This document shows, piece by piece, positions 15,893-38,052 of a stretch of DNA of 64,000 nucleotides (its first letter is position 1; each line of letters begins with the position of its first letter). A program made the translations under genes and the position numbers. The notes beneath the pieces were generated by a model. It searched no databases and was not told the DNA's origin. It saw nothing but the letters and a program-made list of their open reading frames with translations. Source of the stretch: Eledone cirrhosa (Eukaryota); NCBI GenBank assembly GCA_964016885.1, contig CAXHJY010000608.1, positions 91,218 through 155,217 of the forward strand, given 5' to 3'.

Positions 15893-16962
15893 AAAGAAAA
15901 AGGGATGAAATCGAAAATGCAACTGAAGTCTTATTTTTTTTTAAATATATATATTTATTTGGTTCCTTTACCGGTTTCGCAGTTCTTCTGCTTTTCAAAA
16001 GGTGAGTTGAGATGGACGGTCTGTGGTTTTTCTCACATCTGGTTGGTCTCTAAATGTTACTTGTTTTATATGGAAAAACTGGCTCGAAAACCAGGTTTTT
16101 CGAGAAGTAATTTGATTGGTTTGTCAATAATTATAATAAATTTCGCGCCAGTTCGCGTTACAATAGTTCTTCAAATAGAGAGGGGGGGGGGGGGGGGTTG
16201 TCACGGGTTGTTTTTTCATATCTTCCAATACACACATACACACACACACACACACATATACACACACACAAGCACACAAATAAACACATATCTTCAGTCT
16301 CAATAGAAAATCTGAACTCTGACACCTAAACTCTGACAGCTGGCCATATTCACTGAGCCAGAACATTTCTCCCAATCCCTTTTCCCTTGACCACTATCTC
16401 TCCACTGTCATAACATTCACTATAGACTACAGAATAGTTTTCCAAATAGGGGCGCAAAAATGTAATGAAAACTTGTTCACGTGACAGCCAAATTTCATTT
16501 ATAACCAACCAAAAAAAAGCCTTCGTGAGCCTCATTTTTTCAAGTAAAAAGAAATTCAAACACTCATATATGAAAAAAACAACCTGTGACAACCCCCCCC
16601 CCCCCCCTCTCTTATTTGAAGAACTATTGTAACGCGAACTGGCGCGAAATTTATTATAATTATTGACAAACCAATCAAATTACTTCTCGAAAAACCTGGT
16701 TTTCGAGCCAGTTTTTCCATATAAAACAAGTAACATTTAGAGACCAACCAGATGTGAGAAAAACCACAGACCCTCCATCTCAACTCACCTTTTTGAAAAG
16801 CAGAAGAACTGCGAAACCGGTAAAGGAACCAAATAAATATATATATTTCTAAAAAATAAGACTTCAGTTGCATTTTCGATTTCATCCTTTTTCTTTATAC
16901 TTCCACTCGTGTAGGACACCTCGGTTATTTTTCATTTTGTAAAAAAAACCTCACTTTCTAAT
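15893..16962. mobile_element. Non-coding fold-back element with U3-A8 hammerheads
   Basis: 15893-16221 inverts 16568-16897, and the right arm has ~60 nt of extra tail. Same family at 59790-60258 and 61992-62448. Confidence 0.85.
15965..16002 (-). ncRNA. Minimal type I hammerhead, U3-A8 core variant
   Basis: CCTT-TTGAAAA-GCAG aagaa CTGC-GAAA-CCGG-TA-AAGG. Other copies at 16788-16826(+), 59864-59901(-), 60074-60111(+), 62064-62101(-) and 62274-62311(+). Confidence 0.8.
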
Positions 16963-18984
16963 ATATATCTATATATATACATATATATATATATATATGT
17001 ATATATATATATATATATATATATAATATATATATAGATATCCATATATATATATACATATATATATATATATATATATACATATATATATATATATATA
17101 TAGATATATATATATATACATATATATATATATACATATATATATATACATATATATATATATACATATATATATATATATACATATATATACATATATA
17201 TATATATATACATATATATATATATACATATATATATATGTACATATATATATATATATATATATATACATATATATATATATACATATATATATATATA
17301 TATATATATATATATATATATATATATATATATATATATATATATATGTGTATACATATATAATATATATATATTATATATATATACATATATATATATA
17401 TACAAATATATATATATATACATATATATATATATATATATATATATATATATATATATATGTATACATATATAATATATATATATATATATATATATAT
17501 ATATATATATATATATATATATATATATGTATACATATATAATATATATATATATATATATATTAGTATACATATATAATATATATATATATATATATAT
17601 ATATATGTATACATATATAATATATATATATATATATATATATATATATATATATATATATATATATATATATATATGTATATATATATATATATATGTA
17701 TATATACATATATATATACATATATATATGTATATATATATATATATATATATATATATATATATATATATATATACATATATATATATATACATATATA
17801 TACATATATACATATACATATATATATATATATACATATACATATATGTATATATACATATATATATATATATATATATATATATATTTATATATATACT
17901 ATATATATATATATATATATACATATATATATATCTATATATACATATATACATATACTATACATATATATACATATATATATATATATACATATATATA
18001 TATATATACATGTATATATATATATATACATATATATAATGTATATATACATATATATAGTTAAAAGAATAGAGGTGTATATATATATATATATATAATA
18101 TACATATAAATATATATATATATACATATACATATATATATATATATATATATATATATATATATATATATATATGTATATATATATATATATGTATATA
18201 TATATATATATATATATATATATATATGTTTATATATATATATATATGTATATATATATATATATATATATTTATATGTATGTATATACATATACATATA
18301 TATATATATAGATATATATATATGTATATATAATATATATATATATAATATATATATATATGTATATATATATATATATATATTTATATGTATGTATATA
18401 CATATACATATATATATATATATAGATATATATATATATGTATATATATATAATATATATATATATATATATATATATATATATATATATTATATATATA
18501 TATATATATATGTATATACATATACATATATATATATATAGATATAGATATATGTATATATATATATATAATATATATATATATATATATATATATATAT
18601 ATATATATATACATATATATATTATATATGTATAGATATATATATATTATATATATATACATATATATATATATAATATATATATATATATACATATATA
18701 TATATATAATATATATAATATATATATATATATAATATATATATATAATATATATATATACATATATATATATATATAATATATATATATACATATATAA
18801 ATATTTATATATATATAATATATATAATATATATACATACATATATATATATATATAATATATATATATATAATATATATATATATACACATATATATAT
18901 ATAATATATATATATACATAATATATATATATATATATATATATATATATATATATATAATATATATATATATTATATATATAA
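16963..18984. repeat. (TA)n microsatellite, ~2 kb, imperfect
   Basis: Direct reading. Confidence 0.97.
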
Positions 18985-36407: not shown

Positions 36408-36707
36408 TGCCCTTCAAATTTTTTCACCGCAGTTATTTTTTGTTTCAGCTAAGTCGTCCCTTCACGCATCATAATGACCGCCAAATTTGAAATTTTATCT
36501 ATATATATATATATATATATATATATATATATATATATTTTATCTCTCTCTCTATATATATATATTTTATCTATATATATATATATATATATATTTTTTA
36601 TCTATCTCTCTATATATATATTTATATATATATATTATCTATCTATATATATATATATATATATATATTATCTACCTCTATATATATATATATATATATA
36701 TATATAT

Positions 36708-38052
36708 AATATATTTAGAAACACACAGATACATGCGGACACACACATATATACATGAATGCATCCGCACCCAACTGTGAGTTAAGGGTGCCAACTTCAC
36801 CGATGTTGCTCAATGAATGACTGGGACAGACCAATTCAGTTGTACCAGACTGAACCAGTATCAGAGTTAAAAATACATTATGAAGAGAGAAGAAACATTT
36901 AGATATAATTAGTAATAAAATGTATCATACCTAAACTGCTCCTAAATTCCTCGACTACGTAGTTTCGTGGCATAAATAAAAACAATATATCATAAAGATA
37001 TAGTGTCCCTGCGAGGTCTGCCGACTTATCAAGAGGATACCTCATTTTACTAGTCTCAAGAACGCGTCTACACGACGTGAGAAAGAATCCCAAAAGGCGG
37101 AGGGGGAGATAGTCACGCGATATAACGGTCGAGAAACAGAGCTAAGCCTCTTATAACCCCGAAGAAAATACCACGGAGGTGGAGGGGGTATTTATATCGA
37201 GGCCGTAGAAGAGGTGGTGAAGAAGGCGAGAAGTATGAGTAATGGAAGCTTTCCAGCTGTCCCCACACTTCAAAGGTTGCTCGACCAGAGGGAGTTATTA
37301 ACAATATATTTAGAAACACACAGATACATGCGGACACACACATATATACATGATTGCATCCGCACCCAACGTAGTCGAGGAATTTAGGAGCAGTTTAGGT
37401 ATGATACATTTTATTACTAATTATATCTAAATGTTTCTTCTCTCTTCATAATGTATTTTTAACTCTGATACTGGTTCAGTCTGGTACAACTGAATTGGTC
37501 TGTCCCAGTCATTCATTGAGCAACATCGGTGAAGTTGGCACCCTTAACTCACAGTTGGGTGCGGATGCATTCATGTATATATGTGTGTGTCCGCATGTAT
37601 CTGTGTGTTTCTAAATATATTGTTAATAACTCCCTCTGGTCGAGCAACCTTTGAAGTGTGGGGACAGCTGGAAAGCTTCCATTACTCATACTTCTCGCCT
37701 TCTTCACCACCTCTTCTACGGCCTCGATATAAATACCCCCTCCGCCTCCGTGGTATTTTCTTCGGGGTTATAAGACGCTTAGCTCTGTTTCTCGACCGTT
37801 ATATCGCGTGACTATCTCCCCCTCCGCCTTTTGGGATTCTTTCTCACGTCGTGTAGACGCGTTCTTGAGACTAGTAAAATGAGGTATCCTCTTGATAAGT
37901 CGGCAGACCTCGCAGGGACTCTATATCTTTATGATATATTGTTTTTGTTTATGCCACGAAACTACGTAGTCGAGGAATTTAGGAGCAGTTTAGGTATGAT
38001 ACATTTTATTACTAATTATATCTAAATGTTTCTTCTCTCTTCATAATGTATT
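36708..38052. mobile_element. ~595-bp unit element as two divergent arms, each slightly over one unit
   Basis: 36708-37369 (minus) and 37370-38052 (plus) are inverted, circularly permuted copies. Diverged relative at 42061-42325. Confidence 0.87.
37887..37976 (+). ncRNA. Type I hammerhead, U3-A8 core variant, 595-bp family
   Basis: TCCTC-TTGATAA-GTcGGCA..TGCCAC-GAAA-CTACGTAG-TC-GAGGA. Minus copy at 36948-37037. Confidence 0.82.

Follow-up and report, generated by a model that had tools for sequence, protein, structure and literature searches.

The stretch of the Eledone cirrhosa genome considered here, referred to as the window, comprises 64,000 nucleotides of contig CAXHJY010000608.1 (positions 91,218 to 155,217). 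It contains nine hammerhead ribozyme motifs in which the pair between positions 3 and 8 of the core, canonically C3-G8, is U3-A8. The motifs were found by scanning both strands without fixing the bases at positions 3 and 8 and, in addition, by searches for the exact cores. They belong to three families of distinct sequence: family A with six copies of the core TTGAAAA, family B with a single TTGAGAA core and family C with two TTGATAA cores (Table 1). The genome as a whole, 3.0 Gb in size, is rich in (TA)n and in open reading frames (ORFs) of Penelope-like elements.

All three families have the layout of a type I hammerhead (N3 U G A N7 N8 A9 ... GAAA ... UH, three helices, ends in helix I). 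GAAA stands in register in all nine copies, the cleavage-site triplet is GUA in family A and GUC in families B and C, and the 3-8 pair is a Watson-Crick U3-A8 pair in nine of nine. The closing pair G10.1-C11.1 and the pair A15.1-U16.1 are present in every family, and G10.1 directly follows A9, the extra unpaired base between 9 and 10.1 being absent. A preliminary description of this DNA had reported U3-A8 cores in the three families (6, 1 and 2 copies) with GAAA and GUA/GUC downstream, and all nine were recovered by the free-position scan and the exact searches. It had also called stems I and II fully paired. For stem II this is correct in family A, which has a plain 4-bp stem, but not in families B and C, where helix II consists of 2 bp, then a 1-nt bulge and then a long extension. 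Helix I has 4-5 bp in all three families, and its last pair is broken (AAGT) in two of the six family A copies. The family A pattern matches six times in the window and not at all in 100 shuffles. The six copies form three inverted pairs, two of which are a local duplicate, and so they do not represent six independent events. A search against Rfam at gathering thresholds gave no match anywhere in the window, not even for the 16 cores at 23.5-30.4 kb that have the canonical C3-G8 pair. The silence of Rfam is thus not specific to U3-A8 and is uninformative; its hammerhead models miss minimal and long-helix forms, and a match at the gathering score is not taken as defining.

Table 1. Hammerhead motifs, their host insertions and related repeats in the window (n, strand not applicable)
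Feature	Positions	Strand	Basis and details
Family A minimal type I hammerhead	15965..16002	-	core TTGAAAA 15998-15992 (window scan); helix I 4 bp, helix II 4 bp; palindromic helix III ACCGGT; predicted cut after A17 (15969)
Family A hammerhead, opposite arm of the same inverted insertion as 15965..16002	16789..16826	+	core scan, core from 16793; one additional T ahead of core
Family A insertion, flanked by (TA)n	15894..16960	n	two 5'-truncated copies of the 3' untranslated region of a Neptune-like Penelope-like element, inverted: about 15894-16215 minus, about 16219-16960 plus
Family A hammerhead copy	59864..59901	-	core scan, core from 59897
Family A hammerhead copy, final helix I pair broken (AAGT)	60074..60111	+	core scan, core from 60078
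Family A hammerhead copy	62064..62101	-	core scan, core from 62097
Family A hammerhead copy, final helix I pair broken (AAGT)	62274..62311	+	core scan, core from 62278
Family B type I hammerhead	22675..22768	+	core 22680-22686; helix I 5 bp; bulged long helix II; helix III 6 bp; minimum-energy fold is the hammerhead; predicted cut after C17 (22763)
Family B 3' untranslated region, 5'-truncated, of a Hydra-clade Penelope-like element, between (TA)n tracts	22071..22790	+	similarity to longer copies
Family C type I hammerhead	37887..37976	+	core 37892-37898; helix I 5 bp; bulged long helix II; 10-nt palindromic helix III; predicted cut after C17 (37971)
Family C hammerhead, inverted copy	36948..37037	-	core starts at 37032
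Family C insertion in (TA)n	36708..38052	n	pieces of a 595-nt non-coding tandem unit, tandem and inverted; single full unit 37458-38052
Context: 467-bp tandem array with internal inversion	23228..30668	n	16 canonical C3-G8 minimal hammerheads (5 minus, 11 plus)
Context: Hydra-clade element, same clade as family B but other pair	31426..34876	-	ORF pieces 32842-34876; C3-G8 hammerhead 31426-31491
Context: second copy of the 31426..34876 Hydra-clade family	44624..47081	+	C3-G8 hammerhead 44624-44689 upstream of ORF pieces 44726-47081

The exact 28-nt pattern of family A has 11,772 matches genome-wide. In 27 of 30 loci the motif lies 3' of the stop codon of an ORF for a reverse transcriptase (RT) with a GIY-YIG endonuclease, mostly 1.0-1.1 kb behind it, and in some copies this ORF is open for at least 580 codons. 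It carries a C-terminal GIY-YIG domain with a CX2-5CxxC linker and a CCHH motif. These motifs are common to Nematis too; the label Neptune-like is based on motifs and is presumed. Pfam searches with six ORF pieces gave matches only in two pieces of family E, which has 59% RT identity to family A: a GIY-YIG match, once above the cut-off, and a weak RVT_1 match. The window copies of family A are 5'-truncated inverted pairs in TA tracts, an arrangement that has been described for Penelope-like elements (PMC8557442). Family A cannot form helix III in cis (the predicted probability of the 15.1-16.1 pair is 0.00), and its palindrome, with a predicted duplex energy of -8.3 kcal/mol, would need a dimer. 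Among the 11,772 copies, 101 lack U3 and 46 lack A8, scattered in a decay-like manner; the variation within the family is the decay of a fixed U3-A8 master and not covariation. A diverged relative of family A (L025, L066 and L096:5766 among the loci fetched from the genome), 67-73% identical to it upstream, retains U3-A8 and shows a compensatory change in helix II. Two copies of this relative have decayed, GCAA replacing GAAA.

Family B gave 1,665 first-look candidates genome-wide, and in a longer copy (L083) the motif lies 1,132 nt after the RT-endonuclease stop. The hammerhead, with a stable 6-bp helix III instead of a palindrome, is itself the predicted minimum-energy fold of family B, because of which this family can likely cut as a monomer. 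The endonuclease ORF contains RWRTFF, SDKTG and CNCPDRSIC (CxCX5C), a single Cys between IY and YIG, plus a GIY-YIG at the C terminus; CCHH is absent, and the target is (TA)n. The Hydra clade is described as having an RW-basic motif, DKT, a CxCX5C linker, no CCHH, TA targets and a 3' hammerhead (PMC8557442). Family B is classified by these motifs, and not by a tree with named references, as a Hydra-clade Penelope-like element; a Nematis-like assignment was rejected, the ORF motifs fitting the Hydra clade as described in that paper. Pfam found no match for family B or for the Hydra-type ORF pieces of the window. A clade-mate of family B in the window, with 45% RT identity, yet has C3-G8. Broken RT-endonuclease ORFs of the family B type lie at 2561-6080, 32842-34876, 44726-47081 and 50737-52185, of which 44726-47081 was checked for Hydra-type motifs, and the Hydra-type clade looks diverse in this genome, with 13 of 20 endonuclease clusters on a single branch. 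A fragment on the minus strand at 20668-21423 resembles what we take to be the RT thumb and endonuclease linker of a different Penelope-like element (KHSIPYSQLLR... CSRPCCKTC).

The unit of family C is 595 nt long, with about 99% identity among the best copies, and occurs in tandems and in long arrays with truncated inverted junctions. There is one type I hammerhead per tandem unit, and 12 motifs were found in one array (L097). The unit is non-coding, the longest ATG-started frame being 76 amino acids, and has a GC content of 42%. Because it lacks a long ORF and combines this GC content with one hammerhead per tandem unit, family C is, as judged from its sequence, retrozyme-like. The 10-nt palindromic helix III has a predicted duplex energy of -12.9 kcal/mol, and the tandem layout supplies the partner. 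In contigs of four sequencing runs of unknown kind, no variant at 10% or more was present in the family C core, a result which says nothing about expression.

A single short-hammerhead pattern was run genome-wide in four states of positions 3 and 8; families B and C are too long for it. There were 20,491 matches with U3-A8 (41 in the reversed control), 9,685 with C3-G8 (157), 290 with U3 and a base other than A at position 8 (73) and 186 with C3 and a base other than G (48). Unpaired cores amount to 476 of the 30,652 matches, or 1.6%, compared with about 44% expected if positions 3 and 8 were independent, and U3-A8 makes up 20,491 of the 30,176 paired matches (68%). Among motifs fetched by similarity, U3-A8 is found in 36 of 37 of family B, 71 of 71 of family C and 40 of 40 of family A. 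The earlier claim that the double change preserves the 3-8 pair is borne out both by the four-state counts and by paired switching in a tandem retrozyme family with a 316-330-bp unit. The expectation that screens for CUGAnGA would miss such elements proved true for about two thirds of the short motif class.

The 316-330-bp family has 4,403 pattern matches, and its members are 76-89% identical along the unit and hence homologous. The first 100 matches, counted by hand, comprise 86 U3-A8, 10 C3-G8, 2 U3-G8, 1 C3-A8 and 1 A3-A8. In an alignment of five members, whose structure was drawn from the same five rows, all 55 cells pair, and both partners vary in six of the 11 pairs, 3-8 among them. Because a homologous family carries both U3-A8 and C3-G8, Watson-Crick pairing at 3-8 is maintained in these hammerheads. 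At L081:731-830, L095:2406-4085, L117:642-741 and L128:3066-3165 the 316-330-bp family has a full type I hammerhead with a complete monomer fold; its helix I is long with an internal loop, and loop II is CAAnnA.

Hammerhead families were also tallied by hand in about 1.06 Mb of fetched loci, which gave seven groups with U3-A8 and 12 with C3-G8. These loci contained no mismatched family of more than one copy, apart from family A copies fetched for being mutated. The Fisher probability for 3-8 pairing in this tally (P=2e-5) is overstated, because the groups are related and the loci were chosen around U3-A8 motifs. Singletons were dropped from it, namely L100 (U3-C8), L128:5435 (C3-C8), the L155 repeat and the 528-bp tandem at 40788 (similar match in the reversed control). 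A local scan of the fetched loci found no G3-C8 or A3-U8 family, the genome-wide counts having covered the U3 and C3 states. In a systematic genome sample of 40 x 10 kb (35% GC), a strict scan found eight U3-A8 motifs at three loci and two C3-G8 motifs at two loci, with none in the reversed sequence and six in five shuffles. A looser scan found 13 U3-A8, four C3-G8 at three loci and one C3-C8; five of the 13 belong to a single AT-rich repeat, whose helix I has 3 bp, and are probably false. U3-A8 and C3-G8 are about even by sampled loci, so that the majority of U3-A8 applies to the short pattern only.

The nine motifs are type I hammerhead motifs with a U3-A8 pair; families A and B occupy the 3' tails of Penelope-like elements, and family C sits in a tandem repeat of 595 nt. 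It is quite probable that they self-cleave the RNA of the element, family B probably as a monomer and families A and C probably as dimers. Most simply, C3-G8 would have been converted to U3-A8 by two transitions (C>T and G>A) through a U-G wobble, in a small number of active master copies, the genome being AT-rich. Selection on the 3-8 pair would act only at the transposition of a master copy, the pair then being copied thousands of times. To judge from the literature, cleavage would release the RNA of the element or retrozyme from longer read-through transcripts. Most window copies of families A and B are probably inert, because both are 5'-truncated and the partners of family A lie on opposite strands.

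Several observations weigh against this reading. The genome-wide copy counts are pseudo-replicated, more than half of the U3-A8 count being family A. No G8, that is no C3-G8 form, was present among the 100 non-U3 copies of family A that were listed. Family D, which is related to A, has 347 matches, of which the first 100 listed comprise 93 U3-A8, 5 U3-G8 and 2 C3-A8, with no C3-G8 form among them; families A and D, lacking C3-G8 forms among the matches listed, thus show no covariation by themselves. The monomer hammerhead fold of family C lies 1.1 kcal/mol above its predicted minimum. In family A, U3 may pair with A17 and extend helix I (predicted probability 0.52). A C3-G17 pair is presumed to inhibit minimal hammerheads (PMC3884650), and because U3-A17 competes in an analogous way the family A ribozyme may be slow. 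A dimer model has been put forward for minimal Penelope-type hammerheads, whose cleavage is weak in vitro and does not occur as monomers (PMC4209133). An endonuclease tree was built from 20 of 28 clusters, with eight short or degraded ones left out and five families labelled for the 3-8 pair, and these five require a minimum of one change.

Since one change suffices, a single origin is compatible with the endonuclease tree, which does not separate single from several origins. U3-A8 could have arisen once, or come with a single transferred 3' module, and been inherited by all families with later reversions to C3-G8, in which case the families would not be independent evidence. This is possible but rather doubtful. 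In its favor, the tree places two C3-G8 Hydra-type families as sisters (84/94), and families A and D/E have both U3-A8 and the 59% RT identity in common. Families A and B, however, belong to different clades, their shared protein similarity being only a 72-amino-acid patch at 29%, and no convincing DNA similarity among A, B and C exists outside the motif (upstream-flank z 1.8-2.9), the 3' DNA of A and B showing none beyond chance. Also at odds with a single origin are the C3-G8 pair of the family B clade-mate and the separate switching of the 316-330-bp retrozyme family. In the available part of a published multi-species alignment (PMC4209133) most rows are C3-G8 and the UUGA(U/A)AA core occurs only in schistosome rows, which suggests that C3-G8 is ancestral. 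If it is, autonomous elements gained U3-A8 at least twice, with a further switch in the short retrozyme. The preliminary description had stated that the same double change took place in three unrelated families. The families are indeed distinct, and A and B are of different clades; independent origin of the change is supported only in part, as A shares U3-A8 with the related D/E families, the tree needs one change and family C has no ORF by which it could be placed.

Two further explanations concern what the U3-A8 pair does rather than how often it arose. The motifs could be non-catalytic relics or protein-binding RNA structures in which the 3-8 pair is kept for structure and not for cleavage; the weak in vitro activity of minimal Penelope-type hammerheads, for which other functions have been left possible (PMC4209133), and the lack of a monomer helix III in family A would fit this. 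The catalytic core (UGAnnA, GAAA, UH) is nevertheless kept across families with compensatory helix divergence, and the monomer folds of family B and of the 316-330-bp family are complete, so this explanation appears very unlikely. Alternatively, U3-A8 could be an adaptive, slower or conditional core, with a weaker 3-8 pair and, in family A, the U3-A17 competitor, delaying cleavage until a partner copy or a protein is present. The combination of U3 with A17 in the most abundant family is in line with this idea, and G10.1-C11.1 closes helix II in seven of seven U3-A8 groups as against five of 12 C3-G8 groups (P=0.017), a hint that the weaker pair needs support. The G-C tally, however, was made by hand on related families, two of the seven having been found with a pattern that requires G-C; A17 is not enriched with U3 (two of seven versus seven of 12 groups, P=0.35), and AT-biased mutation accounts for the direction of change without adaptation. 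An adaptive core is thus improbable. The same holds for its broadest form, in which U3-A8 would be dominant across unrelated Penelope-like clades and retrozymes as a tuned, slower switch that needs G10.1-C11.1, and in which U3-A17 in the 11,000-copy family would hold the ribozyme off until a second copy pairs; we consider it scarcely probable.

The U3-A8 core itself is already in print, and both halves of the inference made in the preliminary description have been published (2011, 2014), so that the present motifs are new examples of a known variant. In several hammerheads found in nature C3 and G8 change jointly to U3 and A8, and ribozymes with swapped 3-8 pairs are cited as active in vitro (Perreault et al. 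2011, PMC3088659); in the part of that report available, the same core is not tied to Penelope-like elements and genome-wide counts are not given. U3-A8 was described in the Cercyon Penelope-like elements of Schistosoma mansoni, where an earlier descriptor had missed it and a new one gave about 1,300 hits (Cervera and De la Pena 2014, PMC4209133). The same covariation is found there in type I hammerheads of Penelope-like 3' repeats, and the Cercyon elements resemble those described here in the short helix I, the palindromic helix III for dimerization and the inverted pairs 100-700 bp apart. The schistosome consensus has an unpaired base between 9 and 10.1, common in that paper's motifs though missing from its canonical-like variants, which families A, B and C lack; in this they match the variants with a small palindromic helix III in the same paper. 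Unlike in Cercyon, U3-A8 is carried here by Neptune-like elements, by elements of the Hydra clade and by retrozyme-like units in tandem, and it accounts for 68% of the short pattern, compared with about 1,300 U3-A8 against 2,000 C3-G8 in the schistosome. Family B has the features of the Hydra clade, and the available part of the paper on the Hydra and Neptune clades (Craig et al. 2021, PMC8557442) does not mention U3-A8 cores. Family C resembles non-LTR (non-long-terminal-repeat) retrozymes (Cervera and De la Pena 2020, PMC7229834; bioRxiv 10.64898/2026.07.22.740005) in that its units are non-coding, repeat head to tail, have a single type I hammerhead each and 42% GC, and are found from monomers to long arrays. 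It differs from them in that its 595-nt unit exceeds the 150-450 bp described, its core is U3-A8, and it is known from DNA sequence. Within a partial coverage of the literature, no publication was found that describes a genome with more U3-A8 than C3-G8 cores, or the U3-A8 pair in elements of the Hydra clade.

Other repeats accompany these families in the window. Genome variants of the 467-bp array at 23228-30668 replace GTTG/CAAC by GATG/CATC in helix II. At 39925-41688 there is a 528-bp tandem with an inverted junction and a CTGAGGA...GAAACATGTT core; its helix I is weak, and it may be one more degenerate retrozyme. Two other repeats, a tandem of about 520 bp and an inverted pair with 70% similarity, occupy 149-1188 and 38197-39043; the scans found no hammerhead in them.

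The significance of these findings is modest. The point of local interest is that U3-A8 is more numerous than C3-G8 among the short hammerheads of this genome, and about two thirds of the short motifs in this count would escape censuses of hammerheads and retrozymes that look for the canonical core. If U3-A8 were a tuned switch, CUGAnGA screens would recover fewer than half of the hammerheads in such animals. The 316-330-bp retrozyme, with its U3-A8 and C3-G8 subfamilies, is a natural matched pair, and family A provides the U3/A17 case, for the effect of the 3-8 pair on cleavage and spread.

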